Notes under the pieces: model-generated
Told to the model about the DNA's origin: nothing
Database searches by the model: none
What the model saw: only the letters and a program-made list of their open reading frames with translations
Translations under genes and position numbers: made by a program
Source: Planctomycetota bacterium
GTDB lineage: Bacteria; Planctomycetota; MHYJ01; JACPRB01
Assembly (NCBI GenBank): GCA_035574235.1
Contig: DATLZA010000156.1
Span: 17,998-81,997, forward strand
Reading direction: 5' to 3'
DNA: 64,000 bases
Part shown: positions 21,271-41,855 of the stretch, piece by piece
Numbering within the stretch: position 1 is the stretch's first letter
How the letters are laid out: the number at the start of each line of letters is the position of its first letter

Positions 21271-22545
21271 ATGACGTCCGGCCCGGAGCTGGCGGAGCGG
21301 CTGCGCTGGTTCGTCCGCCTGAGGTGGTGGGCGGTCGGCGGGATCGTCCTGGCGGCCGTCCTTGTGGCCGCGCTGGGAATGGGGGTCTCGTGGCCCATCC
21401 TGCTGGCCTTGGCCGGCCTTCTCGGGGGGCTCAACGTCGCCTTCGGGCTGCTCGCGCGCCGCGGCGCGCCGCCCCTGGCCCTGGCCTGGTGGCAGGTGGT
21501 GGTGGATCTGGCGATCCTCACCCTGGCCCTCCACGTGGCCGGCGGCATCGACAACCCTTTCGTCTTCTTCTACGTCTTCCACGTCATCATCGCCGCCATC
21601 CTCCTGCCCCGGCGCACGTCGTACGTCGTGGCGGCGCTGGCCTCGCTGTTCTATGTCGCCATGGCGGTTCTGGAGCACGGGGAACTCGTGCCCCACGCGG
21701 ATCTGGGGCTGGGCGGCTGGCGCGATCCCCGCGCGGTGGCCGCCTCGTCGCTCGTCCTGGCCTCGACGCTCTTCATCGCCACGTATCTCGCCTCGACCAT
21801 CATGGAGGGCCTGCGCCGCAAGGACGAGGAGATGCGCCGCTTCCACGAACGGCTGCTTCAGACCGAAAAGCTCGCCGGGCTGGGGCAGCTCGCCGCCGGA
21901 ATCGCCCACGAGCTCAACACGCCGCTCGCCTCGATCGCCGGCTACGCCGAGGAGCTGGCGGAGCTTTCGCGCGGCAACGGAGAGAAGATCGTCCGGTACA
22001 CCGACGTCATCCGGTCGCAGACCGAACGCTGCCGCGCCATCACGCGGAGCCTTCTCAACTTCGCCCGCAAGAGCGAGTTCCGCCTCCAGCCCGTGGACGT
22101 CAATGCCCTTCTTCGCGAGGCGATCGACTATCTGCGGTTCAAGAAGCGCCAGGAGCGCCTGGAGATCGTGACGGAGCTGGGACCGGCGCCTCCGGTGCAG
22201 GCGGACCCCGGCCAGCTTCTGCAGGTTTTTCTTTCGGTCCTCGTCAACGCGGCCGACGCCGTGGAGCCGGAGGGCGGCACGATCCGGGTGGAAAGCTCCG
22301 GCGGCCGGGACGTGCGCGTCCGGATCGCCGACACCGGCTGCGGCATCCCGCCGGAGAATCTCAAGAAGATCTTCGAGCCCTTCTTCACGACCAAGGGACC
22401 GGGCCAGGGGACCGGCCTGGGGCTTTCCCTGAGCTACGGGATCGTCCGCCAGCTCGGCGGCTCGATCGAGGTGCGCAGCGAGGTGGGGCAGGGGACCGAG
22501 GTGCTGATCGTGCTGCCGGCGGGCGAGCCGGCGCGGGAGCGCTGA
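21271..22545 (+). CDS. sensor histidine kinase (polytopic membrane sensor + HisKA + HATPase_c)
   Basis: Five or six TM helices. H-box [22 protein letters not shown]1 and G2 boxes present ([36 protein letters not shown]). Confidence 0.85.
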
Positions 22546-22551
22546 AGAGCC

Positions 22552-23868
22552 ATGGACAAGCCGGCCGTTCTCGTGGTCGACGACGACGAGAGCTTCCGCC
22601 AGCTCGTGGCCGACCGTCTGGCGCGGACGGGCCACCGCGTGGTGGCCGCGGCCGGGGGCGCCCAGGCGCTGTCGCTCCTGGACGGCGTGGACGTGGCGCT
22701 CGTGGACCTGCTCATGCCCGGGATGGACGGCCTGGCGCTTCTGCGGCGCATCCGCGAGGCGCGCCCCGACGTGGCCGTGGTGATCCTGACGGGGCACGGG
22801 ACGGTCGAGACCGCCGTCGAGGCCATGAAGGCCGGGGCGGCGGATTATCTTCAGAAGCCCTGCTCGCTGGCGGAGGTGGAGCTCCGGGTCGCGCAGGCCG
22901 TGCAGCGGCGGCGTCTCGAGCGCGAGAACGTCCAGCTCCGCGCGACCTTGCGTCACGAGCGGGGGGCGGCGGAGATCGTCGGGACGAGCCCGGCCATGCG
23001 GCGCGTCATGGAGCTGATCCGAAAGGTGAAGGACAGCGCCTCGCCCGTCCTCATCCAGGGCGAAAGCGGCACCGGCAAGGAGCTCGTCGCGCGGGCTCTG
23101 CATTTCGACAGCGTCCGGCGCGATTTCCCCTTCGTGGCGGTCAACTGCGCCACGCTGCAGGAGAACCTCCTGGAAAGCGAGCTTTTCGGCCACCGGGCGG
23201 GCGCGTTCACGGGGGCCGCCGCCGACAAGCGGGGCCTCCTCGAGATCGCCGACCGCGGAACCCTGTTCGTCGACGAAATCGCCGAGACCCATCCCAACGT
23301 GCAGGCCAAGCTGCTGCGCGTCCTCGAGACGGGCGAGTTTCGCCCCGTGGGCGACGTGCGCGAGCGCAAGGCGGACGTGCGGCTGGTGGCGGCCACGAAC
23401 AAGGATCTGCGGGCCGAGGTCGCCCGCGGCCGCTTCCGCGAGGATCTTTTCTACCGGCTCGACGTCGTCACGATTCTTCTGCCGCCCCTGCGGGAGCGCA
23501 AGGAGGACATTCCGCTCCTGGCGCGGCACTACCTCCTGCGGCGGGGCCGGACGATCTCGGACGGGGCGGTCGCCGCCCTCCTGGCCCACGACTGGCCGGG
23601 CAACGTCCGGGAGCTTTTCAACGTCCTGGAGCGCGCCGTCCTCTTCGACCCGTCCGGAAGGATCGAGTCCGTGGAGATCCCCTCCGCCGCCGCCCGCCCC
23701 GCGCCTCGCGGCGGCACGCTCGAGGAGATCGAGATCGCCCACATCCGCCGGGTGCTCGAGAGCGTCCAGTGGAACGTCTCGCGCGCGGCCGAGATCCTGG
23801 GGATGTCCCGCCGGAGCCTCCACCGCAAGATCAACCAGTACAACCTGCACCGCCACGGCGGAGCGTGA
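22552..23868 (+). CDS. sigma-54-dependent response regulator (NtrC family: REC + AAA+ + HTH)
   Basis: Receiver domain with DVALVDLLMPGMDG. Walker A GESGTGKE, GAFTGA motif, ESELFGH. C-terminal Fis-type HTH (LGMSRRSLHRKI). Confidence 0.9.
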   Translation: MDKPAVLVVDDDESFRQLVADRLARTGHRVVAAAGGAQALSLLDGVDVALVDLLMPGMDGLALLRRIREARPDVAVVILTGHGTVETAVEAMKAGAADYLQKPCSLAEVELRVAQAVQRRRLERENVQLRATLRHERGAAEIVGTSPAMRRVMELIRKVKDSASPVLIQGESGTGKELVARALHFDSVRRDFPFVAVNCATLQENLLESELFGHRAGAFTGAAADKRGLLEIADRGTLFVDEIAETHPNVQAKLLRVLETGEFRPVGDVRERKADVRLVAATNKDLRAEVARGRFREDLFYRLDVVTILLPPLRERKEDIPLLARHYLLRRGRTISDGAVAALLAHDWPGNVRELFNVLERAVLFDPSGRIESVEIPSAAARPAPRGGTLEEIEIAHIRRVLESVQWNVSRAAEILGMSRRSLHRKINQYNLHRHGGA

Positions 23869-25457: not shown

Positions 25458-25624
25458 TCGAGTGAGACATTCTGGCGCACTCCGCGTCCGAATGACCCCT
25501 CGATGCCCCCGGCCACGTCCGCTTTTCTTTCGGCACGTCCTTTGCTCCTTCCGTCCGGCGTTTTCCTTGACCCCCTCCGGGGGGCTCTCTATAGTAGCGG
25601 GCGCTTCACGCCCGAGAGGACGGC

Positions 25625-26554
25625 TTGACCGACGATCGCGAGCTCCGCCAGAAGATCGCCGCCGAGGCGCAGACCGGGTCGGCCTTGGATGCGGGCCCGG
25701 GCGTGCGGGCCTTTCAGTTTTTCCTCGTGCCTCTCCTGATCGTCGCGGTTTGCGTGGGGGTGGTGGCGGGGATGACCTACCTCGTGTCGAACCCGCGTCC
25801 GGCGGCGGAATGGCTCAAGGACATCCGGGACGGGGGACCCAACACGCGCCCGCATGCGGCCCTTCAGCTGGCGCAGGCGCTGAGGCGGATGAAGGAGCCG
25901 GATCCGTCGCTGACGCCCGGAATCATCGAGGTCTATCGTTCCAGTCGTCCGGACGAGACGGAGCTTCGGCGCTATCTGGTGAACTGTCTGGGGACGCTCC
26001 GGGATCCGAAGGCGTCCCCTTTCCTGTTGGAGCGGGTCCGGGAGGAGAAGGATCTCGAGCTGCGGGCGGCATGTCTGGACGCGCTCGGGGCGGTCAAGGA
26101 TCCCGAGACGCTGCCGGAACTCGTCAAATTGCTTGACGATCCGGACGGCGTCGTTAGAAAATACGCCGCCTTCAACGCGGGCGCCGTGGCGGAGCGCGCG
26201 CCGGATCGGTCCGGCGCCGTCGAAGCGCTGCGCCGGAAACTTTCGGACCCGCGGCCGGACGTGGGCTGGAACGCGGCGCTGGCGCTGGCTTACTTCCTGG
26301 AAGACGGCTCGGGGACGGACACCTTGAAGAAGATGCTCGACCGGGCGTATCTCCGGGAGACGATCGACCCGAAGGATCCGAACGCGGAGATTCTGGCGGC
26401 GCGGGTCCTGGTCGGAGCCTGCAACGCGGCCGCGCGCCTTCGGGACGCGAGCTTCCTGCCGCTTCTGCGCCGGCTGGCGGACGACCGCCGGGAGCCGGAT
26501 CCCGACGTGCGGTTTATCGCCCATCAGGCGATCCAAAAGATCGAATCGAGGTGA
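25625..26554 (+). CDS. membrane-anchored HEAT/PBS-lyase-like repeat protein
   Basis: TTG start per the track. One TM (FQFFLVPLLIVAVCVGVVAGM). Repeated units of the form LxxLxDPDxxVRxxAAxALG (LGTLRDPKA…, LGAVKDPET…, LLDDPDGVVRKYAA…, LSDPRPDVGWNAALAL). The gene ends 8 nt before the Rieske gene. Confidence 0.65.
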   Translation: MTDDRELRQKIAAEAQTGSALDAGPGVRAFQFFLVPLLIVAVCVGVVAGMTYLVSNPRPAAEWLKDIRDGGPNTRPHAALQLAQALRRMKEPDPSLTPGIIEVYRSSRPDETELRRYLVNCLGTLRDPKASPFLLERVREEKDLELRAACLDALGAVKDPETLPELVKLLDDPDGVVRKYAAFNAGAVAERAPDRSGAVEALRRKLSDPRPDVGWNAALALAYFLEDGSGTDTLKKMLDRAYLRETIDPKDPNAEILAARVLVGACNAAARLRDASFLPLLRRLADDRREPDPDVRFIAHQAIQKIESR

Positions 26555-26561
26555 GCGCGCG

Positions 26562-27173
26562 ATGGCCGAGGAACAGTTCACGGGCGATCAGGTGAAGGAT
26601 CTTCGCCGCAAGGTCCCGGAGCCCTACAGCCTCGTGGCGGACTATCCGCCCAAGATCACGCGGCGGAGTTTTTTCATGTCGTGGGCGGGGGCGGCCTGGA
26701 CCGCCTTCGGCGCCGCGTCGGGCGTGGGGACGCTGGCGATGCTGCGGTACATGATGCCGAACGTTCTTTTCGAGCCGCCGCAGGTCTTCAAGGCAGGCAA
26801 GCCCGAGGACTACGAGTGGGACAAGCCGGATGAGCGCTTCAAGCAGGACAAGAAGACCTGGATCGTGAAGCTCTCGAAGGACTATAACGGCCGCCAGAAG
26901 GTGCTCGTGGCGCTGGACACCACCTGCACCCACCTGGGCTGCACGCCGAACGTGCTTTTCAGCGAAAGCAAGATCAAGTGCCCCTGCCACGGCTCGGGCT
27001 TCCGGTTCACGGGCATCAATTTCGAAGGGCCGGCGCCGCGTCCCCTGGAGCGGTACGCCGTTTCGATCGATCCGATCGACGGACAGATCGTCGTGGACAA
27101 GAACCGGAAGTTCCAGCAGGAAAAGGGGCAGTGGGAGGACAAGGCTTCCTTCATCGATCTTTCCACGGCATAG
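26562..27173 (+). CDS. Rieske [2Fe-2S] iron-sulfur subunit of a cytochrome bc-type complex
   Basis: Tat-type signal [12 protein letters not shown]. Rieske boxes CTHLGC and CPCHGS. Confidence 0.9.
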
Positions 27174-27177
27174 CGGC

Positions 27178-27972
27178 ATGGCGAAGAAGGGCGACGTCGG
27201 GCGAATCTGGGATTACATCGTCAACACGCAGGTGTGGCGCTCCATCATGCGCCACGGCTACCCGGACACCCCCCGGAACCGTTCGCTGGCGATCATGTCG
27301 AACGTGTTCCTGCATCTGCACCCCATCCGGCTGCGCAAGAGCGGCCTGCGGGTGCGGTACACGTGGTGCATGGGAGGGCTGACCTTTTTCCTCTTCCTCG
27401 TCGAGACGATCACCGGGCTGCTCCTGATGTTCTACTACCGCCCCACGGCGGAATACGCCTACCACGACATCGTGTACCTGCGGGCGGACGTGGCGCTGGG
27501 GACGATGCGCGAGATTCACCGGTGGGGCGCGCACGCGATGGTGATCACGATCTGGCTGCACATGATGCGTGTGTTTCTCACCGGCGCCTACAAGCCGCCC
27601 CGGGAGTTCAACTGGGGCGTGGGGGTGGTGCTTCTGGTGATCACGCTGCTGCTTTCGTTCACCGGATACCTCCTCCCGTGGGACCAGCTGGCCATGTGGG
27701 CGATTACGGTGGGGACGAACATGGCGCGGGCGACCCCGCTTCTGGGCCATGAGGGTCCGGGCGCCGCGCTCATCAAGGTCGGCGACATCGGCGTGGTGCA
27801 CATGGCCAGCGACGTCCGGTTCGGCCTTCTGGCCGGACGGTTCGTGGGACCGCCGGCGATCCTGCGGTTCTACGTGCTGCACTGCGTGGGGTTCCCGCTG
27901 ATCGCGGCGTTCTTGATCGCGGTTCACTTCTGGCGGGTGCGCAAGGACGGCGGCATCTCGGGCCCGCTGTAG
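27178..27972 (+). CDS. cytochrome b, N-terminal half (b6-like, split cytochrome b)
   Basis: Four heme-ligand histidines in two H-x13-H pairs ([17 protein letters not shown]; [19 protein letters not shown]). 264 aa. Confidence 0.9.
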
Positions 27973-28011: not shown

Positions 28012-29142
28012 ATGCACGTGCTGGCGGCGGTGGCGGCGGGCGGCGGAGGAGGGGGATTCCTCCCCGAAGGGTTCAAGGACTGGCTCAACCACCTTTTCAA
28101 CCCCGTCGTCTATACCCTCCTGAGCATCGTGCTGTTCGTGCTCATGATGGTGGGCTATCGCGTCTGGACGCGCCCCAAGGTCGCCCTCGGGATCCTCATC
28201 GCCGTCGCCCTCTTCTTCGTGGTGGCCTTTCCGGACATGAACTTCCGGAAGATCGTCACGAAGCCCGACAACGTTCCCATCGTCGCGCTCATCTTCGTGC
28301 TGGGCTTCTTCACGTGGTGGGCGCTGCGCCAGGCCGCGATCAACGACGAGCGGATCGAAAAGGGCCTGCCGCCTCAGGAAGCCCTGGAATCCAACGACCG
28401 CGTCCTGAGCTGGCCCGACCTGGTCTACACGGAACTCATCTGCTCCGTGATCTTCACGGTCGTGCTCGTGCTGTGGGGCGTGTTCCTGGACGCCCCCCTC
28501 GAGGAGCCCGCCAACCCCGGAAAGACCCCGAACCCCTCGAAGGCGCCCTGGTACTTCCTGGGGCTTCAGGAAATGCTCGTCTACTTCGACCCCTGGATCG
28601 CGGGCGTGGTGCTGCCCACGATGATCATCACGGGGCTCATCATCATCCCCTACTGCGACCGGAATCCCAAGGGCGTGGGGTATTACACCCTCAAGGAACG
28701 CCCCTTCGCCGTCTGGACCTTCATGTTCGGCTTCCTCATCCTCTGGGTGTCCCTCATCATCATGGGCACGTTCCTGCGCGGGCCTAACTGGGAGTTTTTC
28801 GGTCCCTTCGAGGCGTGGGACGTCCACAAGGTGAGCCCGCTTTCGAACGTGAACCTGTCGGAGTATTTCTGGGTCAAGTGGCTCGGACAGCCTCTTCCCA
28901 ACAACATTTTCATGCGCGAGGCGCCGGGCTTCGTGCTGGTCCTGGGTTACCTGTTCGTTCTGCCGCCCGTTCTGGCCTTCACCGTGTTCCGGGGCCTTTA
29001 CCGGCAGATCGGATTCATCCGGTATAACCTCGTCATCCTCCACCTCCTCGTCATGGTGGGGATGGTCATCAAGATGGTTCTCCGCTGGACGGTGAACCTG
29101 AAATACGTCGTGTTCATCCCCGAGTGGTTCTTCAACATCTGA
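28012..29142 (+). CDS. cytochrome b C-terminal half (subunit IV-like) with extra transmembrane helices
   Basis: Qo-site region KAPWYFLGLQEML corresponds to the PEWY motif, here reading APWY. Multiple TM helices. Stop lies 1 nt before the next ORF. Confidence 0.8.
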   Translation: MHVLAAVAAGGGGGGFLPEGFKDWLNHLFNPVVYTLLSIVLFVLMMVGYRVWTRPKVALGILIAVALFFVVAFPDMNFRKIVTKPDNVPIVALIFVLGFFTWWALRQAAINDERIEKGLPPQEALESNDRVLSWPDLVYTELICSVIFTVVLVLWGVFLDAPLEEPANPGKTPNPSKAPWYFLGLQEMLVYFDPWIAGVVLPTMIITGLIIIPYCDRNPKGVGYYTLKERPFAVWTFMFGFLILWVSLIIMGTFLRGPNWEFFGPFEAWDVHKVSPLSNVNLSEYFWVKWLGQPLPNNIFMREAPGFVLVLGYLFVLPPVLAFTVFRGLYRQIGFIRYNLVILHLLVMVGMVIKMVLRWTVNLKYVVFIPEWFFNI

Positions 29143-29143
29143 T

Positions 29144-32100
29144 ATGGCCGACGCCGCCAAGCCCGACGCCCCCGTGAAGCACGAGCCCCCCAAGGAGCTC
29201 GAAGGGAAGGCCCAGGTCCAGAAGTTCATGGGCCGTCCCAAGAGAACTCCCGCGGACCAGGCGGAGTACTTCTACGACGTCAAGGTCACCCATATCGTCT
29301 TCTTCGCCGCTTCGCTCGGCCTGCTGGCGTCGTTCCTCCTCATGTTCCGCAAGGACCACGCCCGGCCCTGGAAGGAGTACCAGCGCCAGTTCGCCGAGAT
29401 GGATTTCGAGAAGCTCTGGTTCGAAATGAACGAGCTGCGCAAGGCGGAGGCGGCTCACGACCAGAAGAAGCGCGAGCTCGAACGCCAGATCGAGGCTTTC
29501 CTCAAGATCGTCCGCGGCCGCACGGTTCCGGTCACGCTTTTCGACCCTCAGGCCGCCGAGAAAGTCGCGCGGCTCAAGTCCGCGCCGACCGTCACGGTCC
29601 TCGTCGACGAGGAGAAAAAGAAGCTCCTTCTGGCCGAGCAGGAAAAGATCCGCGGGGAGCACTACGACAAGCAGCAGCTTTTCAACTTCGCCAAGGACGA
29701 GCTGGGGGCCGTCCGGTACCGCTTCGAGGAAGCGAGCCGCCATTACGAGGAGGCCCGGAAGTCCGGCGACGCCCGGCTTCCCGAGCACGAGCGCGCCTAT
29801 CTCGAGGCCAAGAAGGCCTGGGAGGCGGTGAACGCCAAGGTGGATCTCCGCAAACGCGAGTTCGACGAGGTGGACGCGCTGAAGACCTTCTACGAGGACT
29901 TCGTGACGGCCCTGGAGAGCCGCTCGGTGCCGGGACTCTGGGAGGGGCGCCCGTCCCTGGCGGAGCTGCAGAAAGAGATCGCCCTCATCACCCGCGACCT
30001 GGAAGACAAGCGCACGCGCTTCCAGAAGGAACGCCCCAGCTTCGCCAACCGGGTGCGCAACCTTCCCATGCTGGACTTCTTCGCCCCGCAGTACAAGGTC
30101 CAGCAGGTGATCCTCCCCGACCTCAAGGATCAGCTCAACTTCACGCGCGTCGACAAGGTGGACCGCTGCCATACCTGCCACGTGGGCATCGCCAATCCCG
30201 TCTACGAGGTGCGCATCCATCGTTCGGCGGAGAAGGAGGAGGACCGGTACGTTTTCAAGGATCCCTTCCTTCGGGAGTTCGTGGCCCACGCGCGGGGCCT
30301 CAGGGACGGCCGGCCCTTCGAGCCGAAGGACTGCAAGGTCTGCGACCCGGAAGGGCGCAAGAACGCGGAAATGGCCGCCCCGCTTACGCCCCACGGCTCC
30401 TGGGATTCGGACGACGCGATCCGGTTCACGAAAGCCTTCATGGCCCATCCGCGCCTGGACCTGTACGTGGCCGATTCCTCCCGCCACCCGATGCAGCGGT
30501 TCGGCTGCACGATCTGCCACGAGGGAGACGGACGGGACACGGACTTCACGCGCGTCGTTCACACGCCCGACGACCGCCAGGAAGCGGCCGCCTGGCGCCG
30601 CCGGCACGGCACTCCCTTCGGCGAGGAACGCTACAACTGGAACTACCGGGAGCTGTGGGATCTCCCGATGATCCCCTCGAAGTTCGTCCAGGCGTCGTGC
30701 CGGCGCTGCCACGTGGATGCCGTGGAGCTGGACGGGGCGGAGAAGTACGTGGCCGGCATGAAGCTCTTCGAGCGCGCCGGCTGCTACGGCTGCCACCGCA
30801 CGGACACCTACCAGGTTCTGGAAAAGGATCAGGCCAATCCTTCGCTGGATCCCAACCGCAAGGCGCGCCGTCCCGGGCCGCCGCTCACGCGGATCGACAC
30901 CAAGGTCACGCCGGAATGGGCCTGGAAGTGGCTCATGGGCCCCCGCGACTTCCGCCCCACCACCCGCATGCCGCATTTCTTCCTGCAGTCCAACGCGCGA
31001 AACTTCGTCACCGGGCTTGACGAGAAGGGGGAAGTCCGCAAGAAGCCCTACAAGCCCGAGGAGATCGACGGCACCCTCGCCTGGTCGATCCTGCGGTACA
31101 TCTGGAGCCTGTCGGAGACCCAAGAGGACGCCCCGCCTCCGGCTTCTCTCAAGGGCGATCCCAAACGCGGGGAGCTCATCGTCCGACAGGTGGGATGCAC
31201 CGCCTGCCACAAGGTCGAGGATACCCCCGAATCCGAATTCCGCGCCTGGACGGATCGGAGCCGGTACCTGGAGGAATTCGCTCCGGCGCTGGCGGGCGTG
31301 GGGAGCAAGATCAAGTCCAAAACCTGGCTGTACCACTGGGTGCGCAACCCCAAGAAGCACTTCCCGGATTCCGCGATGCCGAGCCTGCGCCTCACGGAAC
31401 AGGAAGCGCTGGACGTCGTGGAATACCTGATGACGCTCCGCAAGCCGGAATGGGAGCGCCGCCCCGGCCCGCCGCCGGTGCGGGAAGAGCTCGTCAATGA
31501 CCTCGTCTTCGAGCAGCTGCGCAAGGCGACCTCCGACGCCAACGCCCGCCGGTTGCTCCAGGGCGGGGATCCGGAGCTCAAGGACCTGGACGGCCGGGTG
31601 CGGTGGCTCGGGCGCAAGATGACGGCCAACTTCGGCTGCTACTCCTGCCACCGGCTGCCCCGCAAGGACGGAGAGCCGGACTGGCTCAACACCGAGGGCA
31701 TCGGCGTGGAGCTGACGGGAGCGCAACCGTTCGGTTCCAAGCATTACGACCGGCTGGACTTCGGCTTCACGATGGACGACGGGGTCAACCATCACGGCGT
31801 CACGTTCAAGCACGGAGTGACCGGTCAGGAGATCACCGCCCGCGTCCACGAAACCCGCCAGGACTGGCTGGAGTGGAAGCTGCGCAATCCCCGGATCTTC
31901 GACGGCGGCAAAATGGAGTCGAAGCCCTGGGACGAGCTTCTGCGGATGCCCCACTTCGGCCTGACCGACTATGAGATCGAGCTGCTTCAGACGTTCGTCC
32001 TGTCCTTCACGGACCATCGGGTCGCCGGGCTGGTGGCGTCGGCGGAGAAGCGGTTTTCCCCCGACGAGAAGGCGCTCAACCGCGGAGAGCGCCTTGTGCG

Positions 32101-33202
32101 GGACAACAACTGCCGGGCCTGCCACCGGATGTCCCTCGATCGCTTCGAGACGGAGTGGACGCGATTGGACCCGGCTCAGAAGAAGGTCGTGACCACCTGG
32201 GAGTGGGTCGAAGGGCGCAACCTCGGGCGCGCGGGGGCGGACAACGCCGAGGCGATCCTCCGGCGCTGGGGGCTGATCTCCGGCGACGTCAAAAAGGAGC
32301 AGCTCGCCCGGTACGAGGTTTACTCGATCGACTGGGCGTCCGATCATCGCACGCTCCGGATCCCGGGCGTCGTGGCCGGGGGCAACAAGTTCGTGGCCTT
32401 CGACGGGGACGATTGGTGGTACCTCGACACGGACGAAAAAGGCCAGCCCCTCAAGCGGCCGATTCGCCGGAGGATCCCCCAGGACGGAGGGGACATCCTG
32501 CCCAAGATCGCCGCCTTCAAGAAGAAGCTCGCCGACGAATCGGACGAGGACATCGGCGACATGAGCGACCCCGGGCAGCTCGAGGCGCGCTATCCTCCGA
32601 TGCTGCGGACCCAGGGCGTCAAGACCCAGGCCGACTGGCTCTACCGCTTCCTCAAGAATCCCTGGCCGATCCGGCCGAACATTTTCCCGGTGGCGCCGGG
32701 CGCCAGGACGATGCCGGATCTCAACATTCGGATGCCCACGTTCGGACTGTCCGACGAGGAGGCGGCGTCGCTTGTGCGGTGGTTCGCCGTCCGGGACCAT
32801 CTGCCGGGGGTGGATGTCTACCCCTACACGAATTTCCCGGAGCGGGACCCGGCCCTTCTGGCCGCCCGCCGGGAGATCCACGAGAAGGTTCTTCGCGGCG
32901 TGATTCTGGACCGCGAAAAGGGGTGCGCAAGCTGCCACTGGGTGGCCGGCCAGGCGCCGCCCGGCGACCCCTTCAAGCACGCGCCGGATCTGGCCCATGT
33001 GGAGGAACGGCTCCGCCCCCGGTGGCTCTACCCGTGGGTGGCCGTCCCGGCTTCGATCTATCCGCGCACGACGATGACGTCCTTCTGGTCGAACCCGCAG
33101 GATCCGAAACAGGCCGACGAGATCCGGGCGGCCGTGGAGGCGCTGTTGAACTTCCGGAAACTGACCTCCGCGAAGGGCGCGGAGACGCAGGAGAAGAAAT
33201 AA
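29144..33202 (+). CDS. membrane-anchored poly-cytochrome c (8 CxxCH; tandem class I cytochrome c domains) with long N-terminal coiled coil
   Basis: Eight heme motifs: CHTCH, CTICH, CRRCH, CYGCH, CTACH, CYSCH, CRACH, CASCH. At least four are followed by class-I Met-ligand signatures (TRMPHFFL, SAMPSLRLTEQEALDVVEYL, LRMPHFGLTDYEIELLQTF, IRMPTFGLSDEEAASLVRWF). N-terminal TM IVFFAASLGLLASFLLMF, then ~250 aa of heptad-like charged sequence. Confidence 0.85.
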   Translation: MADAAKPDAPVKHEPPKELEGKAQVQKFMGRPKRTPADQAEYFYDVKVTHIVFFAASLGLLASFLLMFRKDHARPWKEYQRQFAEMDFEKLWFEMNELRKAEAAHDQKKRELERQIEAFLKIVRGRTVPVTLFDPQAAEKVARLKSAPTVTVLVDEEKKKLLLAEQEKIRGEHYDKQQLFNFAKDELGAVRYRFEEASRHYEEARKSGDARLPEHERAYLEAKKAWEAVNAKVDLRKREFDEVDALKTFYEDFVTALESRSVPGLWEGRPSLAELQKEIALITRDLEDKRTRFQKERPSFANRVRNLPMLDFFAPQYKVQQVILPDLKDQLNFTRVDKVDRCHTCHVGIANPVYEVRIHRSAEKEEDRYVFKDPFLREFVAHARGLRDGRPFEPKDCKVCDPEGRKNAEMAAPLTPHGSWDSDDAIRFTKAFMAHPRLDLYVADSSRHPMQRFGCTICHEGDGRDTDFTRVVHTPDDRQEAAAWRRRHGTPFGEERYNWNYRELWDLPMIPSKFVQASCRRCHVDAVELDGAEKYVAGMKLFERAGCYGCHRTDTYQVLEKDQANPSLDPNRKARRPGPPLTRIDTKVTPEWAWKWLMGPRDFRPTTRMPHFFLQSNARNFVTGLDEKGEVRKKPYKPEEIDGTLAWSILRYIWSLSETQEDAPPPASLKGDPKRGELIVRQVGCTACHKVEDTPESEFRAWTDRSRYLEEFAPALAGVGSKIKSKTWLYHWVRNPKKHFPDSAMPSLRLTEQEALDVVEYLMTLRKPEWERRPGPPPVREELVNDLVFEQLRKATSDANARRLLQGGDPELKDLDGRVRWLGRKMTANFGCYSCHRLPRKDGEPDWLNTEGIGVELTGAQPFGSKHYDRLDFGFTMDDGVNHHGVTFKHGVTGQEITARVHETRQDWLEWKLRNPRIFDGGKMESKPWDELLRMPHFGLTDYEIELLQTFVLSFTDHRVAGLVASAEKRFSPDEKALNRGERLVRDNNCRACHRMSLDRFETEWTRLDPAQKKVVTTWEWVEGRNLGRAGADNAEAILRRWGLISGDVKKEQLARYEVYSIDWASDHRTLRIPGVVAGGNKFVAFDGDDWWYLDTDEKGQPLKRPIRRRIPQDGGDILPKIAAFKKKLADESDEDIGDMSDPGQLEARYPPMLRTQGVKTQADWLYRFLKNPWPIRPNIFPVAPGARTMPDLNIRMPTFGLSDEEAASLVRWFAVRDHLPGVDVYPYTNFPERDPALLAARREIHEKVLRGVILDREKGCASCHWVAGQAPPGDPFKHAPDLAHVEERLRPRWLYPWVAVPASIYPRTTMTSFWSNPQDPKQADEIRAAVEALLNFRKLTSAKGAETQEKK

Positions 33203-33226: not shown

Positions 33227-33964
33227 ATGCGTACGCTTGCGATGATGGCGGCCGTCGCGGTCGCGCTGGGCGCGTCCGGCGACCGGCGGGCGTCGGCCGG
33301 GACCGGCGGCACGACGGCCCAGGACGGCTTCGCGGTCACGGGCAACGTCAAGATCAAGGGCGACATCCCCAAGCGGAAGAAGATCCGCATGGACGCGGAT
33401 CCGAAGTGCGCCGCGCTCCACGCGGAGCCTCCGTTGACGGAGGAGGTCGTGGCCGACGCCCAGGGCAACGTCCAGTGGGCGTTCGTCTACGTGAAGAAGG
33501 GGCTCGAGGGCAAGAAGTTCGAAGCGCCCAAGACCCCGGTCGTGATCGACCAGAAAGGGTGCCAGTATCACCCGCACGTTCTGGGAATCATGGTCGGACA
33601 GGATCTTCTGATCCGCAACAGCGACGATCTGCTCCACAACATCCATGCGCTGCCCTTCAACAACCGAGAGTTCAACTTCGGGCAGCCGCAGAAGGGGATG
33701 GAGGAGAAGAAGCAGTTCACCACGCCCGAAATCATGGTCAAGGTGAAGTGCGACATTCATCCGTGGATGAGCGCCTGGGTCGGGGTTCTCGAGCACCCCT
33801 TCCACGCGGTTACGGGTCCCGACGGCAACTTCAAGATCGAAGGCCTGCCCGCCGGCAAGTACACGATCGAAGTCTGGCACGAGAAGTACAAGGCGGTTTC
33901 CCAGGAGGTCGAAGTCAAGGCCGCCACGACCGTCAACTTCGAGCTGACGGAGAAGAAGGAGTAA
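33227..33964 (+). CDS. secreted cupredoxin (amicyanin/plastocyanin-like type-1 Cu site) fused to a CarboxypepD_reg-like beta-sandwich
   Basis: Signal peptide MRTLAMMAAVAVALGASG. The segment VGQDLLIRNSDDLLHNIH…KVKCDIHPWMSAW matches amicyanin VGDTVTWINREAMPHNVH…YHCTPHPFMRGKV (Cu ligands H, C-x2-H-x2-M). C-terminal VTGPDGNFKIEGLPAGKYTIEVWHEKY resembles a carboxypeptidase-regulatory domain. Confidence 0.75.
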   Translation: MRTLAMMAAVAVALGASGDRRASAGTGGTTAQDGFAVTGNVKIKGDIPKRKKIRMDADPKCAALHAEPPLTEEVVADAQGNVQWAFVYVKKGLEGKKFEAPKTPVVIDQKGCQYHPHVLGIMVGQDLLIRNSDDLLHNIHALPFNNREFNFGQPQKGMEEKKQFTTPEIMVKVKCDIHPWMSAWVGVLEHPFHAVTGPDGNFKIEGLPAGKYTIEVWHEKYKAVSQEVEVKAATTVNFELTEKKE

Positions 33965-33989
33965 GCGTTCCCTCTTCGGACGGAATTCG

Positions 33990-34030
33990 CGAAGCCCCGG
34001 GCGGAGGTCGCCCGGGGCTTCTTTTTATTC
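33990..34030 (+). terminator. rho-independent terminator after cupredoxin A
   Basis: Hairpin gaagccccgggcg / cgcccggggcttc followed by TTTTTATT. Confidence 0.5.
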
Positions 34031-34166
34031 CTCTTGCGGCGCGGAAAATTGAAGCGGGACAGAATGTCCCAATCCGATCCCGATTCCGGCGCGCCGGTCG
34101 AAGTTCCGCCCGTCAGGCGTGGGCGGCATGCCGTTTGCTTGGGGTCACGGGAAACAGGAGGGCGCG

Positions 34167-34961
34167 ATGAAACGACTTGCGGCGACCCTGATGAGTGTTT
34201 TTGTTCTGGGGTGCGGCCGGTCCGAGACGCCCGGTGGATCGGGGGCCGCTTCCCCTTCGCCGGCCCCCGCTCCGGGCGCGGCCGAGTCCCGGCCGGCGCC
34301 GCCTTCGGGCGACGCCCCGAAGGGCACGGCGTCGATCCGGGGCGTCGTGCGCGTGACGGGCACGCCGGCACGCGGCAAGGCGCGGCCCAGCGACGACTGC
34401 GCGGCGCTTCACGCCGGGCCGATTCTCCTGGACGATATCGTCGCCGACGCGCAGGGTCGCCTGCAATGGGCGTTCGTCTACGTCCGGAAAGGTCTCGAGG
34501 GACGCCGTTATCCGCCGCCGGCCGCGCCGGTGGTCATCGATCAGCGCGGCTGCCGGTACGAACCTCACGTGGTCGGGCTCGTCGCCGGCCAGCGGCTGAA
34601 GGTCACCAACAGCGACGATCTCCTGCACAACGTGCACGGACTTCCGTTCGCCAACCGCGAATGGAACTGGGGTCAGCCGCGCAAGGGGACGGAAAACGAA
34701 ATCACGCTTCAGGTGCCGGAGGTCATGATCCGGATGAAATGCGACATCCATCCCTGGATGAGCGCGTGGATCGGCGTGCTGGAGCACCCCTTCTTCGCGG
34801 TCACGGGTCCCGACGGGAGCTTCGCGATCGAAGGGCTGCCCGACGGCCGGTACGTCCTGGAAGTCTGGCACGAGGCGTTCGAGCCGGTCCTGAGGGACGT
34901 GGAACTCAAGGGCGGAGAATCGCGGGTCGAGGAGTTCGTGCTGGAGAAAAGGAAGCAATAG
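34167..34961 (+). CDS. lipoprotein paralog of the cupredoxin-CarboxypepD_reg fusion
   Basis: RBS aggagg precedes the ATG. Lipobox-like MSVFVLGCG. The same ligand set is present: DLLHNVH…KCDIHPWMSAW. ~55% identity by eye to the 33227 product over the core. Confidence 0.75.
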   Translation: MKRLAATLMSVFVLGCGRSETPGGSGAASPSPAPAPGAAESRPAPPSGDAPKGTASIRGVVRVTGTPARGKARPSDDCAALHAGPILLDDIVADAQGRLQWAFVYVRKGLEGRRYPPPAAPVVIDQRGCRYEPHVVGLVAGQRLKVTNSDDLLHNVHGLPFANREWNWGQPRKGTENEITLQVPEVMIRMKCDIHPWMSAWIGVLEHPFFAVTGPDGSFAIEGLPDGRYVLEVWHEAFEPVLRDVELKGGESRVEEFVLEKRKQ

Positions 34962-34995: not shown

Positions 34996-36018
34996 ATGAA
35001 GGAAAAGGCGCTCTGGGCGCTCTTCGTCGTCCTGGCCGCCTGCGCGGTGGCGGCCGTTCTGGGGCTGTGGTTGCGCCGGGCGGCGCGCGACCGCGCGCCG
35101 GAGTTCGCGCTCGTGGACGCGCAAGGGCGGCCGGTGACGCGGCGCGACCTTCTCGGCGAAGTCTGGGTGGCGGACTTCGTCTTCACCCGCTGCCGGCTCA
35201 CCTGTCCCGCCATGACGTCCGCGATGGCGACGCTGGCCGAGCGCGTGCCGGGGGCTCGGTACGTGTCCTTCACCGTCGATCCGTCGCACGACACTCCCGA
35301 GCATCTGGCCCGGTGGACCGCGACGATGGGCGTGGCCCGCGAGGGATGGCTTTGGCTCTCGGGGGCGTCGGAGGAGGAGATGGGGCGGATCGCGCGGGGC
35401 TTTCTCCTTCCGACGGGACGGGCCCCGGAAACCGACTCCCGCATGGCGATCCTGCACAGCGAGAAGTTCGTCCTCGTGGACCGCTATGGGCGGATCCGCG
35501 GCTGGTACTCGGTGGTGGACGGGCTTTCGCTGCGGAGGGACGAGGCGGCGCTGGCGCGGCTGGAGCAGGATCTGCGGCGCCTGCTGGGGGAGCGCCGGCT
35601 GCCCGTCCAGAAGCTGCCGGCGGTGAACGCCGGATTCAACGCCGTCAGCACGCTTCTGCTCATATCCGGATTCGTCTTCATCCGGAAGAAGCGTGTCGGA
35701 GCGCACCGGGCCTGCATGGTGGGGGCATTGGCGGCTTCGGCGCTCTTTCTGGCCGGGTATCTGGCGGCGCACTACTATCTGGGTTCGACGCCGTATCCGC
35801 GACGGGATTGGACGCGGCCGCTGTATTTCGCCGTTCTGGCGAGTCACTCGGTTCTGGCGGCGTTCATTCTGCCCCTGGCCGGGATCACCCTCTACCGGGC
35901 GTTTCGGGGCGACTTCGAGCGTCACCGGGGGATCGCCCGCTGGACGCTTCCCTTGTGGTTGTACGTCTCGGTGACGGGGGTGGCGATCTACGGGATGCTC
36001 TACGGCGTCGGCGGATAG
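34996..36018 (+). CDS. SCO1/SenC copper chaperone (CxxxCP thioredoxin fold) fused to a DUF420-like polytopic membrane domain
   Basis: N-terminal TM, FVFTRCRLTCPAMTS (CxxxC) with a downstream His (DPSHDTPEH). C-terminal four TM helices with conserved His (LASHSVLAAF). TATAAT 9 nt upstream of the ATG (leaderless-type spacing). Confidence 0.8.
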   Translation: MKEKALWALFVVLAACAVAAVLGLWLRRAARDRAPEFALVDAQGRPVTRRDLLGEVWVADFVFTRCRLTCPAMTSAMATLAERVPGARYVSFTVDPSHDTPEHLARWTATMGVAREGWLWLSGASEEEMGRIARGFLLPTGRAPETDSRMAILHSEKFVLVDRYGRIRGWYSVVDGLSLRRDEAALARLEQDLRRLLGERRLPVQKLPAVNAGFNAVSTLLLISGFVFIRKKRVGAHRACMVGALAASALFLAGYLAAHYYLGSTPYPRRDWTRPLYFAVLASHSVLAAFILPLAGITLYRAFRGDFERHRGIARWTLPLWLYVSVTGVAIYGMLYGVGG

Positions 36019-36024
36019 GCGGCG

Positions 36025-36408
36025 GTGGGGGATTTGTCCTTCGCACGGATATTGGCGCGGGGGATGAAGCTTCGCTGTCCCCGTTGCGGGCTGGGGCGGC
36101 TCTTCGCGCGCGCCTTTCGGATGCATGCGGCCTGCGTTTCGTGCGGGTTGCCGTTCGAACCCGAGCCGGGATACTATGTCGGAGCGATGTATTTGAATTA
36201 CGGGGTAACGGCGGCGCTCGGCCTGGCGGCGGGGCTTTTTCTATTGACGCGGATGGATGCTCGAGGCGTGGTGGCGGGTCTGATGATCTTCGGGGTCGTG
36301 TTTCCCGTTCTTTTTTTTAGGCACTCCCGATCCCTGTGGCGGGCGGCGGACTTCTACGTGGAAAGGCGCACATCCGGCCCGCCGCCCGAGGAACGCCTGC
36401 CAAGGTGA
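36025..36408 (+). CDS. DUF983-like zinc-ribbon membrane protein
   Basis: CPRCG…CVSCG zinc ribbon, followed by two TM helices. This family is commonly linked to cytochrome oxidase/Sco genes. An alternative start exists at 36064. Confidence 0.55.
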   Translation: MGDLSFARILARGMKLRCPRCGLGRLFARAFRMHAACVSCGLPFEPEPGYYVGAMYLNYGVTAALGLAAGLFLLTRMDARGVVAGLMIFGVVFPVLFFRHSRSLWRAADFYVERRTSGPPPEERLPR

Positions 36409-36419: not shown

Positions 36420-36571
36420 TGTCAACCCAACAGGACTTCGAAAGTCAGTGGATAGATTGATGTAAAATCATGATTCCAAGCATCTTATAATCGCGTTTTG
36501 TCGGCCCTCCTGGCATACCGTTTGCAAGTCTCAAGGCGTCCACGTTTATTGCTGCAGATGGAGGTCTAGAG
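36420..36571 (+). promoter_or_regulatory. AT-rich promoter region of groES-groEL (no CIRCE inverted repeat found)
   Basis: This is the only markedly AT-rich stretch in the window. It contains TTGATG…TATAAT-like hexamers. No TTAGCACTC-N9-GAGTGCTAA element is present. Confidence 0.3.
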
Positions 36572-39412: not shown

Positions 39413-40246
39413 TCACGGTCCGCCGAATCGGCGGCGGCACCAGGCGCGCGCGAGGACCAGGTTGAGCCCCATGAGCGCCAGGAATCCGCCCAGCCCGAGC
39501 GCCTTGCGGCGCGCAAACTCCGCCTTCCGCCGCTCCGCCCGGTCGAACGTCTCGCGGGCGGTCCGGGCGGCGGCCGGGATCTCCTCCTCCAGCTTCTTGA
39601 AGACGGAAAAGAGCCCCGCGTGCTGCCGGGAACGGAACTCCCCGCGCGCGCGCCGGGCGGCCTCGAGCGCCGCGCGCTCCGCCGCCCAGGAGATTCCCGG
39701 TTCCTCCTCCGCCAGGCAGGCTTCCAGCCGCGCCAGCTCCGGTTCGAAGGCGGCCATCTGCTCCCCGAATTTCGTCATGGCGGCGATCTGCCGCGAGGCC
39801 GGCCGATGACACTCGGCGCACCCTTGTTCCTTGCTCCTGAGGATTTCCTCCCGCCGCGCCGGGGCCGTCCGGTGCTCGGTGTGGCAGGCCAGGCAGCCCC
39901 GGACCTTTCCGCCTCCCTCCCAGTCGGCATAGTGCTGGCTGCGCTTGAATTCCTCGAGTTCCTGGATATGGCACGTCCCGCACAGGGCGGGCGAATCGCT
40001 GCGGGGGCGGCCGGCCTCGTCGAGCTCCTTAAGGACGCCGCGGCGGAAGCCCTGGACGTAGAGGTGCGGACGCGACTTTCGGGTGTCGATCTGGTCGGCG
40101 CCGTGGCACCCGACGCAGTCGGTTCCTTTGAGCGCGTGAACGGAATCCTTCCAGTGGTCGCGCTGCTCCTCGTGGCATTCCGCGCACCGGCGAGCGTCGG
40201 CCACCCTCTCCTGCGCCGCCAGGAACGCCAGCAGCGCCGCGATCAT
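39413..40246 (-). CDS. pentaheme c-type cytochrome with C-terminal membrane anchor
   Basis: Signal peptide MIAALLAFLAAQ. Five CxxCH motifs: CAECH, CVGCH, CGTCH, CLACH, CAECH. C-terminal TM LGLGGFLALMGLNLVLA. The ATG overlaps the cytochrome b stop (ATGA). The upstream 93 codons of the track ORF are rejected. Confidence 0.8.
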   Translation of the reverse strand: MIAALLAFLAAQERVADARRCAECHEEQRDHWKDSVHALKGTDCVGCHGADQIDTRKSRPHLYVQGFRRGVLKELDEAGRPRSDSPALCGTCHIQELEEFKRSQHYADWEGGGKVRGCLACHTEHRTAPARREEILRSKEQGCAECHRPASRQIAAMTKFGEQMAAFEPELARLEACLAEEEPGISWAAERAALEAARRARGEFRSRQHAGLFSVFKKLEEEIPAAARTARETFDRAERRKAEFARRKALGLGGFLALMGLNLVLARAWCRRRFGGP

Positions 40247-41379
40247 CGGCCGCCCTCCGCCGCGCGGTGCGGCACGCCCCGGATGTCGAACTCCCAGGGT
40301 CCGATCCGCCGCTCGGAAAGGAACCCGAGGATTCCGAGCGCGAGCGTCGCCGCCAGACCCGCCGCGGCGGCCGCCATCAGGAACCGCCGCCGCCCGGGCC
40401 GGCGCTCGGGATTGCGGTCGAGAAACGGCAGGAGAAAAAGAAGCGCCACCGCTCCGTTGACCACGAGAAGCCCCGCGAGCTTCGGGAAATACTTGAGCGC
40501 CTGGTAGACGGGCAGGAAATACCACTCGGGCTTGACTCCCCTGGGCGTGGACTGCGGGGTGGCCTTGGGCCCCAGCTCGAACGGGAAAAGCACCGCCAGC
40601 GTCACCACCAGGCTCAGGACCACGATGACCGTGGTCACCTCGCGGTAGAGATGCCGCGCGAAGGGAACGCCCTCCCGGGCCATGATCCCCTCATATCCCT
40701 CGCCGATCTCCTCCCTGACGCTGCGGCGCGTGCTGATGCCCAGGCGGCGCACCAGGTAGAGATGGCCCGCCACGAGCCCGACGAGAGCGGCCGGGAGGAG
40801 AAGCACGTGCACGATGAAGAAACGCGACAGGGTTGCGTCCGAAACCCGGGAGCCTCCGCGGATCATCTGTCCCAGGGTATCCCCCACGAGGGGCAGTCCC
40901 ATGAACGACTCCGTGGCCACCACGGTGCCCCAGTAGGAAACCTGGTCCATGGGCAGGAGGTACCCCGTGAACCCGAACGTGACCGTGACGAGAAGAAGCG
41001 CGCACCCGAAAAGCCACGTCAGCTCGCGCGGCTTCTTGTACGCCCCGTACCAGAAAACCCGCCCGAGGTGAAGGAGCACCACGAAGACCATCGTGTGGGC
41101 CCCCCAGGCGTGGAAGGAACGGATGAGCCAGCCGCCGGGAATCTCATGCGTGATCCGGCGCACGCTCTCGTACGCCCTGTCCATCGAGCTCGAGTAGTTG
41201 AGGGCCAGGAGGATGCCGCTTCCGACCTGCGTCATGAAGAGCACGAGCGCCGCCGTGCCCAGCGTGAAGGCGTAGCTCTCCGCGTGCGGCGGAACCGGCT
41301 TGTAGAGCTGCTCCCGGCCGAAGCGGGCGAACGACGAAAGCCCCAGCCGTTCCTCCAGCCACGTCCGCAGGCGACCCAT
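40243..41379 (-). CDS. cytochrome b (full-length, unsplit)
   Basis: Both H-x13-H pairs are present (AWGAHTMVFVVLLHLG; IVHVLLLPAALVGLVAGHLY). Canonical Qo motif PEWYFLP. Start at MGRLRTW (41379), 2 nt after the Rieske stop. Confidence 0.9.
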   Translation of the reverse strand: MGRLRTWLEERLGLSSFARFGREQLYKPVPPHAESYAFTLGTAALVLFMTQVGSGILLALNYSSSMDRAYESVRRITHEIPGGWLIRSFHAWGAHTMVFVVLLHLGRVFWYGAYKKPRELTWLFGCALLLVTVTFGFTGYLLPMDQVSYWGTVVATESFMGLPLVGDTLGQMIRGGSRVSDATLSRFFIVHVLLLPAALVGLVAGHLYLVRRLGISTRRSVREEIGEGYEGIMAREGVPFARHLYREVTTVIVVLSLVVTLAVLFPFELGPKATPQSTPRGVKPEWYFLPVYQALKYFPKLAGLLVVNGAVALLFLLPFLDRNPERRPGRRRFLMAAAAAGLAATLALGILGFLSERRIGPWEFDIRGVPHRAAEGGR

Positions 41380-41381
41380 GT

Positions 41382-41855
41382 TCAGAAGACCACGACCAGA
41401 CGACCCTTCTCCGAGCGCACCGGGAACGCCTGAAGCTCCCGCGCCGCCGGTGTCGTCGGTCCGGTCCCGTCCGGACGGAAGGTGGCGCTGTGGCAGGGGC
41501 ACCGGATCAGGCCGCTCTTCTCATCCCACTTCACCAGACACGCCAGGTGCGTGCAGGTGGCATTGACCGCGGTAAGTTTGCCTCCCGCGCGGATGATGAG
41601 CAGGGGGATCGCGCCTTTCTCGATCGCCTTGAAGCCGCCTTCGGGGATGTCGTCCGGCCCCACGTCGACGGGCCCCGAGAGGCGCGCTTCGGGGAGGGGA
41701 GCCAGATAGCGGGCCACCGGCACGGCGCTCAGGGCGCAGGTTGCGCACGCGGAGAGAGCGCACGCCGCGCCCAGGAAGTCCCGGCGGCTCGTTCCCGGCT
41801 GCTCGTCGCGTTCCACCGTCCGATCCTTAGTAGCCCCGCGCCGGACGCGCGTCAA
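41382..41855 (-). CDS. Rieske [2Fe-2S] protein
   Basis: Tat signal RRDFLGAACALSA. Rieske boxes CTHLAC and CPCHSA. 157 aa. Confidence 0.9.
   Translation of the reverse strand: MTRVRRGATKDRTVERDEQPGTSRRDFLGAACALSACATCALSAVPVARYLAPLPEARLSGPVDVGPDDIPEGGFKAIEKGAIPLLIIRAGGKLTAVNATCTHLACLVKWDEKSGLIRCPCHSATFRPDGTGPTTPAARELQAFPVRSEKGRLVVVF

Follow-up and report, generated by a model that had tools for sequence, protein, structure and literature searches.

The cupredoxin fold, the transthyretin-like sandwich and the use of blue-copper proteins as carriers in respiration are all well known. Plastocyanin has a copper-binding loop of the form Cys-x2-His-x4-Met and its electron acceptor is photosystem I. 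Auracyanin (Chloroflexus and Roseiflexus), sulfocyanin (SoxE of Sulfolobus), and halocyanin (haloarchaea) are type-1 copper proteins tethered to the membrane through a flexible linker and an anchor, which is either a lipid or a helix. Paralogue pairs are frequent among them, and where soluble cytochrome c is not used they connect a terminal oxidase with the complex that oxidises quinol. Here, we analyzed a stretch of 64,000 nucleotides from a Planctomycetota bacterium (GenBank assembly GCA_035574235.1, contig DATLZA010000156.1, positions 17,998 to 81,997; hereafter the window), and focused on two tandem genes, Cu1 (open reading frame ORF1) and Cu2 (ORF2), which lie between a Rieske/cytochrome b-type operon and the gene of a Sco1-type copper chaperone. 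Sequence comparisons and structure models make it very likely that both encode type-1 (blue) copper proteins, whose cupredoxin domain is probably inserted into a second small domain. A family with this nested architecture appears to be undescribed, as do its very wide distribution and its tight linkage to operons of Rieske/cytochrome b and multihaem cytochromes and to aa3 oxidase clusters. Our literature searches found no description of the architecture or of the family, and returned a single related item, an annotation-level proposal in the genome paper of Caldithrix abyssi, where two adjacent "plastocyanin" genes were suggested to be the carrier from alternative complex III (PMC5317091). That proposal was made from annotation alone, because no soluble monohaem cytochrome c was found (PMC5317091). 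The two genes may belong to the present family.

An earlier note on this DNA, made from the sequence alone, had described the two genes as tandem paralogues, one with a Sec signal and one with a lipobox. Both were recovered on the + strand with a coding-type G+C content at third codon positions (0.83-0.89, as for real genes; the G+C content of the window is 69%), and their products are paralogues with 57% identity over 212 residues (E = 3e-95). The N-terminus of Cu1, MRTLAMMAAVAVALGASG, contains a short hydrophobic segment resembling a signal peptide and has no Cys. When read from the ATG at 34167, Cu2 begins with MKRLAATLMSVFVLGC, where the residues VLGC (34203-34214, ending in Cys16) fit the lipobox pattern [LVI][ASTVI][GAS]C; Cu1 lacks this motif and has a Ser at the aligned position. 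These N-termini point to a secreted and a lipid-anchored form, as the earlier note had proposed. Cu2 also has a linker rich in Pro, Ala, and Ser, of low model confidence, which extends up to about residue 53. Apart from the signal peptide, no hydrophobic helix was found in Cu1 or Cu2. The reading frame of Cu2 is open from a GTG at 34119 to 34961 on the + strand. Its true start is probably the ATG at 34167, which has an AGGAGG 5 nucleotides (nt) upstream, because the extension from GTG 34119 contains a conserved promoter-like -24/-12 element.

The evidence for a copper site comes from a set of ligands shared by the two proteins. The constellation His/Cys-x2-His-x2-Met, seen in the earlier note as amicyanin-like, is complete in Cu1 (H137, C175, H178, M181) and in Cu2 (H154, C192, H195, M198). 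H137 lies 38 residues before C175-x2-H178-x2-M181, within the spacing of about 35-45 residues found in cupredoxins. Across 228 diverse members of the family, the four residues of Cu1 are conserved at 99% (H137), 96% (C175), 99% (H178), and 99% (M181). Hence, the motif is not a chance resemblance. A pair of cysteines outside the site, C61 and C112, is conserved at 96% and 99%, and the full C-C-H-C-H-M pattern is retained by 95% of the 228 members. This pair probably staples the N-terminal loop to the cupredoxin through a putative disulfide. H117, H140, H190, and Asp176 are invariant in close relatives, and the three His are conserved at 79-89% in the diverse members, with Arg or Asn as substitutes. 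We considered a second metal site made of these four residues and rejected it, since they are invariant in close relatives only.

To compare the domain with solved structures, we used single-sequence and profile searches. The best match of the single sequence was the purple cupredoxin Nmar_1307 (5fc9, E = 0.007), which the domain profile matched with E = 3.5e-4. The profile also matched the C-terminal cupredoxin of a multicopper oxidase of Nitrosopumilus maritimus (9cck, E = 0.01). Both matches come from ammonia-oxidising archaea and share with Cu1 and Cu2 a loop of the form C-x2-H-P-W; in 9cck, it is also followed by Met (CTLHPWM), as in the family. They differ from it in other respects: 5fc9 is a free-standing protein of 95 amino acids (aa) with an Arg at the position of the axial Met, whereas 9cck forms part of a larger oxidase. 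Amicyanin (MauC of Paracoccus denitrificans and P. versutus, structures 1aac and 1id2) was matched with E = 0.035-0.15. The alignment covers its residues 20-102 of 105 and places H137, C175, H178, and M181 on its His53, Cys92, His95, and Met98. Thus, the likeness exceeds the two short motifs to which, according to the earlier note, it might have been restricted.

AlphaFold2 models, built from alignments of 45 sequences, predict a cupredoxin fold in both proteins. Their confidence is high for Cu1 (predicted local distance difference test 89, predicted template-modelling score 0.83) and Cu2 (87 and 0.79). When both models were compared with the PDB using Foldseek, they matched amicyanin, plastocyanin, pseudoazurin, 5fc9, and CuA domains with a probability of 1.00, and the top match was a NirK (6hbe). 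The target-normalised TM-scores (TMt) range from 0.69 to 0.75. Plastocyanin superposes with a TMt of 0.72-0.75 and a root mean square deviation (rmsd) of 1.9-2.4 A (among these values, TMt 0.74 at 1.9-2.1 A), and amicyanin with a TMt of about 0.69 and E of about 1e-5. The predicted fold agrees with what the earlier note had expected. From sequence and models, both proteins would bind copper.

Each of these known proteins nevertheless differs from Cu1 and Cu2. The domain shares with amicyanin the short loop Cys-x2-His-x2-Met and an HNxH motif around the first His, but the identity is only about 20%, the domain is probably inserted in a second one, and it has the additional conserved Cys pair. 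Cu1 and Cu2 also lack a mau context, as there are no mau (methylamine dehydrogenase) genes in the window. Their neighbours are genes for Rieske, cytochrome b, cytochrome c, Sco, and DUF420 proteins, and we ruled out that they are amicyanin proper. Plastocyanin resembles them in fold and in the position of the Cu gene downstream of a split, cytochrome b6-like Rieske/cytochrome b complex. It differs in having no second domain, and Cu1 and Cu2 match neither its Pfam and NCBIfam models nor Copper-bind and the other cupredoxin models. Auracyanin (6kol) matches weakly in structure (E = 5e-4, TMt 0.49). There is no detectable sequence relationship with auracyanin, sulfocyanin or halocyanin, and none of these has the second domain. 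A further difference is that the bc-type complex of the window still includes a multihaem cytochrome c.

The second domain appears to belong to the CarboxypepD_reg group of transthyretin-like sandwiches. The Pfam profile PF13620 matches Cu1 with E = 9.5e-10 and 39.1 bits (cut-off 32.3), only over profile positions 30-82 of 82, and Cu2 with 28.4 bits, just under the cut-off. The missing part of the sandwich seems to lie on the other side of the copper domain. Both models have two long strands ahead of the cupredoxin (in Cu1, assigned by DSSP to residues 35-43 and 81-91), giving a strand order of 2 + 9 + 5, and between these strands A and B there is a basic loop of 32 residues that carries the conserved Cys61. 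We spliced in silico residues 33-46, 79-93, and 189-245 of Cu1. The match to PF13620 then widened to positions 10-82 (43.1 bits) and the match to PF13715 covered positions 2-79, with a slight rise of the scores. A profile of sequences spliced in this way aligned over its positions 3-84 with a complete CarboxypepD_reg domain (residues 27-104 of 9gbc_A, E = 1.2e-4). These results suggest that the cupredoxin is probably inserted into a seven-stranded CarboxypepD_reg sandwich, between its strands B and C, such that Cu1 and Cu2 would each form one compact nested module, down to the level of the atomic structure. The earlier note had placed a CarboxypepD_reg segment after the copper domain. That match is real, but the two domains are probably nested rather than consecutive, with residues 33-46 and 79-93 providing strands A and B.

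Compared with other domains of this type (PF13620, PF13715, the N-terminal domain of the TonB-linked receptor 9gbc, NOMO repeats), the five C-terminal strands match PF13620 and the alignment with 9gbc runs end to end once the cupredoxin is removed. In contrast, the sandwich of Cu1 and Cu2 is apparently broken by the 32-residue A-B loop and by about 95 residues of cupredoxin between strands B and C. To our knowledge, no other CarboxypepD_reg domain with a metal-centre domain inside it has been described.

The family is large. We counted 7,277 clusters at 90% identity and 14,246 clusters at 50% identity (E <= 1e-3 in both cases), of which, among the latter, 1,603 have E <= 1e-30. At least 577 family loci were confirmed in species-representative genomes. 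The combination of a cupredoxin with CarboxypepD_reg, unusual according to the earlier note, is therefore widespread and is unusual only among the characterised cupredoxins. Around 55% of the members have lipobox-like N-termini, and a locus carries from one to four copies. The members are named "plastocyanin" (JGI), "carboxypeptidase regulatory-like domain-containing protein" (NCBI) or hypothetical protein, and no Pfam or NCBIfam model captures the nested family. For the study of gene neighbourhoods, we selected the 80 best genome loci together with L001 (the labels L001-L085 designate genome loci compared with the window), i.e., the 81 loci most similar to the query and not a random sample of the family. 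The 81 loci span more than 15 phyla. The 80 best come from Planctomycetota, Verrucomicrobiota, Omnitrophota, Acidobacteriota, Gemmatimonas, Latescibacterota, Rhodothermales, Bacteroidota, Ignavibacteria, Calditrichia, Kryptoniota, Fidelibacterota, Marinimicrobia, Armatimonadota, Eisenbacteria, and Binatia.

Some members have departed from the complete set of ligands. In Verrucomicrobia, a divergent second member is found directly after Sco-DUF420 (L005 19544-20272, L010 19658-20401, and also L007, L008, and L013). It retains the architecture, the His, and the Met, while the Cys ligand is replaced by Ala, Val or Gly and Cys61 is gone. This copy is possibly a copper chaperone or a non-redox derivative. 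In a related planctomycete (L001 9989-13358), four tandem copies lie between the cytochrome c and Sco-DUF420 genes, and in the fourth the axial Met is replaced by Glu and the conserved Cys pair is missing.

We then compared the open reading frames of the 81 loci with the proteins of the window, and clustered and annotated the recurrent neighbours. At least one respiratory neighbour is present in 71 loci. A homologue of the multihaem cytochrome c is immediately upstream in 33, usually as the last gene of an operon encoding, in this order, HEAT, Rieske, the N- and C-terminal parts of cytochrome b, and cytochrome c. The oxidase gene COX1 is at most 10 kb away in 43 loci and immediately downstream in 33. 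Genes for haem A synthesis (CtaA/CtaB) are nearby in 47 loci, and Sco and/or DUF420 in 33. The typical verrucomicrobial order, in L010, is HEAT, Rieske, cytochrome b, cytochrome b, cytochrome c, Cu, COX1, COX3, COX4, a small open reading frame, COX2, CtaA, CtaB, an ABC transporter, Sco, DUF420, and Cu. We checked five COX2 proteins of related clusters and none had a cytochrome c domain, so these oxidases need an external electron donor. The position of the Cu gene before COX1 raised the possibility that it replaces COX2. This was rejected, since a genuine COX2 (PF00116) is encoded in the same clusters. The Cu proteins are not the CuA cupredoxin of COX2 either, having one loop Cys instead of two and no pair of N-terminal transmembrane helices.

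Other members are found next to different modules. In a planctomycete of the Planctomycetales (L003), a homologue with 68% identity follows a Nar/Nxr-type molybdoenzyme operon (L003 1747-10672) encoding alpha, beta, and NarJ-like subunits and a gamma subunit made of cytochrome c and EB_dh domains. We had considered alternative complex III for this upstream operon, and the Pfam matches led us to reject it. In Latescibacterota (L043 3836-10660), a member comes after the genes for a bd-like oxidase subunit I and several cytochromes c. These associations fit a general electron carrier. One member of a planctomycete subfamily has no respiratory neighbours.

In the window, the neighbours of Cu1 and Cu2 are those that the earlier note had pointed out, with a cytochrome c of 8 CxxCH motifs directly upstream and a Sco1/SenC-DUF420 fusion downstream (Table 1). 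This fusion is a single protein of 340 aa in the window and in close relatives, and elsewhere the two parts are mostly encoded by adjacent, separate genes. The oxidase block found elsewhere between Cu and Sco is missing. The DUF983-like gene, the last before groES, is a doubtful member of the system. A HEAT-repeat protein opens the Rieske/cytochrome b/multihaem operon across several phyla, in the window and in 21 related loci. The window also encodes, on the - strand (39413-41855), a second and different complex of the Rieske/cytochrome b type, and an anaerobic ribonucleotide reductase (ATP-cone and NRDD domains, 60503-62419). The presence of this reductase together with two bc-type complexes suggests a facultatively anaerobic or microaerobic lifestyle.

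Table 1. Features of the window and their positions, counted from its first nucleotide.
Feature	Position	Strand	Remarks
Sigma-54-type -24/-12 element GGCACGTCCTTTGCT	25532..25546	+	Exact GGCAYG-N4-TTGCW; 79 nt upstream of the HEAT gene (start of the bc-type operon)
HEAT-repeat protein, first gene of the operon	25625..26554	+	Pfam HEAT_2, E = 9e-23; homologue at the same position in 21 related loci
Rieske iron-sulfur protein	26562..27173	+	Pfam PF00355; gene order kept in 23 loci
Cytochrome b, N-terminal part (b6-like)	27178..27972	+	Pfam PF00033, E = 4e-38
Cytochrome b, C-terminal part (subunit IV-like)	28012..29142	+	Pfam PF00032
Octahaem cytochrome c, 1352 aa, membrane-anchored	29144..33202	+	8 CxxCH motifs, one N-terminal hydrophobic helix
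Cu1	33227..33964	+	Copper protein of 245 aa, secreted form; signal-like N-terminus without Cys
Cu1 residues 33-93, strands A (33-46) and B (79-93) of the CarboxypepD_reg sandwich	33323..33505	+	DSSP strands, splicing test
Inserted cupredoxin (type-1 copper) domain, Cu1 residues 96-190	33512..33796	+	Foldseek and profile matches
Cu1 ligand codons	H137 33635-33637; C175 33749-33751; H178 33758-33760; M181 33767-33769	+	
Cu1 residues 191-245, strands C-G of the CarboxypepD_reg sandwich	33797..33961	+	Pfam PF13620; includes the VWHE motif
Intrinsic terminator hairpin	33991..34021	+	14-bp stem with 11 G-C pairs, then TTTTTATT (T run); ends the bc-Cu1 unit
Palindrome GGGACAGAATGTCCC	34056..34070	.	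Perfect 6-3-6; about 55 nt upstream of the -24 element
Sigma-54-type -24/-12 element GGCATGCCGTTTGCT	34125..34139	+	Near-perfect; 28 nt before the Cu2 ATG
Cu2	34167..34961	+	Lipoprotein paralogue of Cu1, 264 aa, same nested module
Cu2 ligand codons	H154 34626-34628; C192 34740-34742; H195 34749-34751; M198 34758-34760	+	
Sco1/SenC copper chaperone-DUF420 membrane domain fusion	34996..36018	+	PF02630 (E = 2.5e-23), PF04238 (E = 5e-41)
Small DUF983-like membrane protein with a zinc-ribbon motif	36025..36408	+	Weak PF06170 (E = 0.0016), PRK05978 (E = 8e-7)
Sigma-54-type -24/-12-like element	36512..36526	+	Precedes groES
Pentahaem cytochrome c	39413-40525	-	True start probably internal
Fused full-length cytochrome b	40243-41502	-	
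Small Rieske protein	41382-41855	-	

From the sequence, there is good support for different transcription units of the two genes, and for the suggestion of the earlier note that a terminator between them would allow differential expression. The terminator hairpin after Cu1 is conserved in three relatives that are 91-94% identical (L082, L083, and L084), with one compensatory change (C-G to T-A) in the stem of L084. The palindrome downstream of it recurs in L082 and L084, with substitutions confined to the 3-nt spacer, and may be a candidate site for an activator (enhancer-binding protein). The -24/-12 element of Cu2 is conserved in L082-L085; across the 1.26 Mb of loci compared, its exact motif was found only four times, in each case 45-49 nt upstream of the Cu2 orthologue. 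A reverse-strand gene of the cpYpsA family is found between Cu1 and Cu2 in L084 (5461-5958) and L085 (2283-2798), and in the relative with 91% identity the insertion lies exactly between the terminator and the palindrome. Cu2 must therefore have its own promoter in these genomes. In the window, Cu2 is probably co-transcribed with the Sco1-DUF420 fusion.

Sigma-54 dependence of Cu2 is a prediction from sequence. Three -24/-12-like elements are found on the + strand, each 28-79 nt before the first gene of a unit, namely Cu2-Sco, the HEAT-Rieske bc operon, and groES. Over the whole window, allowing one mismatch, we found 3 such motifs for 2.8 expected, which is not above chance. The backing for the motif is limited to its position and its conservation in relatives, and for the element upstream of the HEAT gene the suggested promoter function derives from position only. 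A few kb upstream of the bc-type operon (21271-23868), there is an NtrC-type pair, in which the histidine kinase carries a PilS-like membrane domain and the response regulator (22552-23868) activates sigma-54. This pair may control the sigma-54-type promoters.

Taken together, we lean towards a function of Cu1 and Cu2 as periplasmic electron carriers from the bc-type complex to terminal oxidases. This reading draws on the conserved type-1 ligands with the short loop of amicyanin, on the export signals giving soluble and lipid-anchored forms, and on gene position, because the genes sit between a quinol-oxidising complex that ends in a multihaem cytochrome c and an oxidase without a built-in cytochrome c (in the five clusters checked). 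As the genes follow a split b6-like Rieske/cytochrome b complex, their role would be analogous to that of plastocyanin, or else to that of the tethered carriers auracyanin, sulfocyanin, and halocyanin. We infer the partners and direction of transfer as follows. Electrons from quinol would enter the Rieske/cytochrome b complex and pass to its membrane-anchored octahaem cytochrome c, and from there to the copper centre of secreted Cu1 or of Cu2, which is lipid-anchored and has a flexible linker. The copper protein would then reduce a terminal acceptor, most likely the CuA centre of an aa3-type haem-copper oxidase encoded elsewhere in the genome. Cu1 would be transcribed with the bc-type operon, up to the terminator, and Cu2 with Sco-DUF420 from its own sigma-54-type promoter. 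With separate transcription units, the two carriers could differ in amount or in the conditions of their expression.

Several observations weigh against this interpretation. No terminal oxidase is encoded within the 64-kb window. The Pfam cupredoxin models, whose use the earlier note had recommended, fail to detect the domain, even when it is excised and searched at E <= 10, and the NCBIfam amicyanin model TIGR02657 gives 15.8 bits for a cut-off of 110.2. The E-values against solved cupredoxins are weak (3.5e-4 to 0.15). Since Pfam and NCBIfam gave no usable match, the assignment relies on profile searches of the PDB and on fold comparison. Some family members lack the Cys or the Met ligand; hence not all of them can be blue copper proteins. 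The choice of the 81 loci by similarity to the query also counts here. Finally, the adjacency of Sco, DUF420, and haem A genes would fit a role in copper delivery or assembly as well, in which Cu2 especially would hand copper to Sco or to the CuA/CuB sites without carrying electrons. The probable co-transcription of Cu2 with the Sco1-DUF420 fusion, the frequency of Sco/DUF420 and CtaA/CtaB among the neighbours (33 and 47 of the 81 loci), and the Cys-less verrucomicrobial copy that keeps His and Met directly after Sco-DUF420 all speak for such a chaperone; PCuAC, a known copper chaperone, likewise combines a cupredoxin-like fold with His/Met ligands. Yet Cu1 and Cu2 retain the complete, rigid ligand set typical of electron-transfer sites, and they have no match to PCuAC (DUF461) or SCO1-SenC in Pfam and NCBIfam at E <= 0.1. 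The gene most often found upstream in the family encodes a multihaem cytochrome c rather than an assembly factor, and members also follow Nar/Nxr-like and bd-like modules, enzymes that have no CuA site to assemble. We therefore regard a chaperone or assembly function as unlikely.

The CarboxypepD_reg scaffold invites another explanation, in which the proteins are fixed subunits, permanently docked to either the octahaem cytochrome c or the oxidase and wiring a bc-aa3 supercomplex. Sulfocyanin plays a comparable part as a fixed wire within the SoxM complex of archaea. No redox role is apparent for the extra domain, whose surface motifs (VWHE, W180) are conserved, many members have a lipid anchor, and the gene shares an operon with the cytochrome c, which it follows directly in 33 loci; COX1 or COX2 comes straight after it in 33. 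Against this reading, loci differ in copy number (one to four), members are found beside unrelated respiratory modules and, in some loci, beside none, and the long disordered linker of Cu2 suggests a head that is tethered yet mobile. We give this possibility little credit. A small redox enzyme acting on nitrogen oxides (NO or nitrite chemistry) seems very improbable. Activity on nitrogen oxides has reportedly been observed for Nmar_1307 and for NirK-type enzymes, which are respectively the best sequence match among PDB entries and the top Foldseek match, and H117, H140, H190, and Asp176 are conserved in the close family. However, the axial Met, which aligns with an Arg in 5fc9, is 99% conserved, and the additional His are replaced by Arg or Asn often enough in the wider family that there is no obligatory second metal site. 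There are also no nitrogen-oxide genes nearby in the window. The presence of the axial Met and the lack of conservation of a second site make this role unlikely.

A broader proposal, which we put forward tentatively and with some doubt, is that the family is the main periplasmic shuttle, the "missing cytochrome c", from quinol-oxidising complexes to haem-copper oxidases in at least a dozen non-proteobacterial phyla. These would include Planctomycetota, Verrucomicrobiota, Acidobacteriota, Omnitrophota, Gemmatimonadota, Latescibacterota, Rhodothermales, and Ignavibacteria. The sandwich would then be a module for bc-aa3 docking, and the Cys-less paralogues found after Sco-DUF420 would be re-used chaperones. 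Many of the abundant phyla of soil, sediment, and freshwater encode Rieske/cytochrome b complexes with giant multihaem cytochromes. In many poorly studied phyla, this widespread family offers a concrete candidate for passing electrons from enzymes of the complex III type to those of the complex IV type, a carrier role that is unsurprising in principle, yet testable. If the domains are nested as proposed, the family is also a clear case of a metal-centre domain lying inside another small domain. The current public annotation, be it "plastocyanin" or "carboxypeptidase regulatory-like", misses this architecture. A dedicated family model would fix thousands of annotations and improve the reconstruction of respiratory chains from metagenomes.

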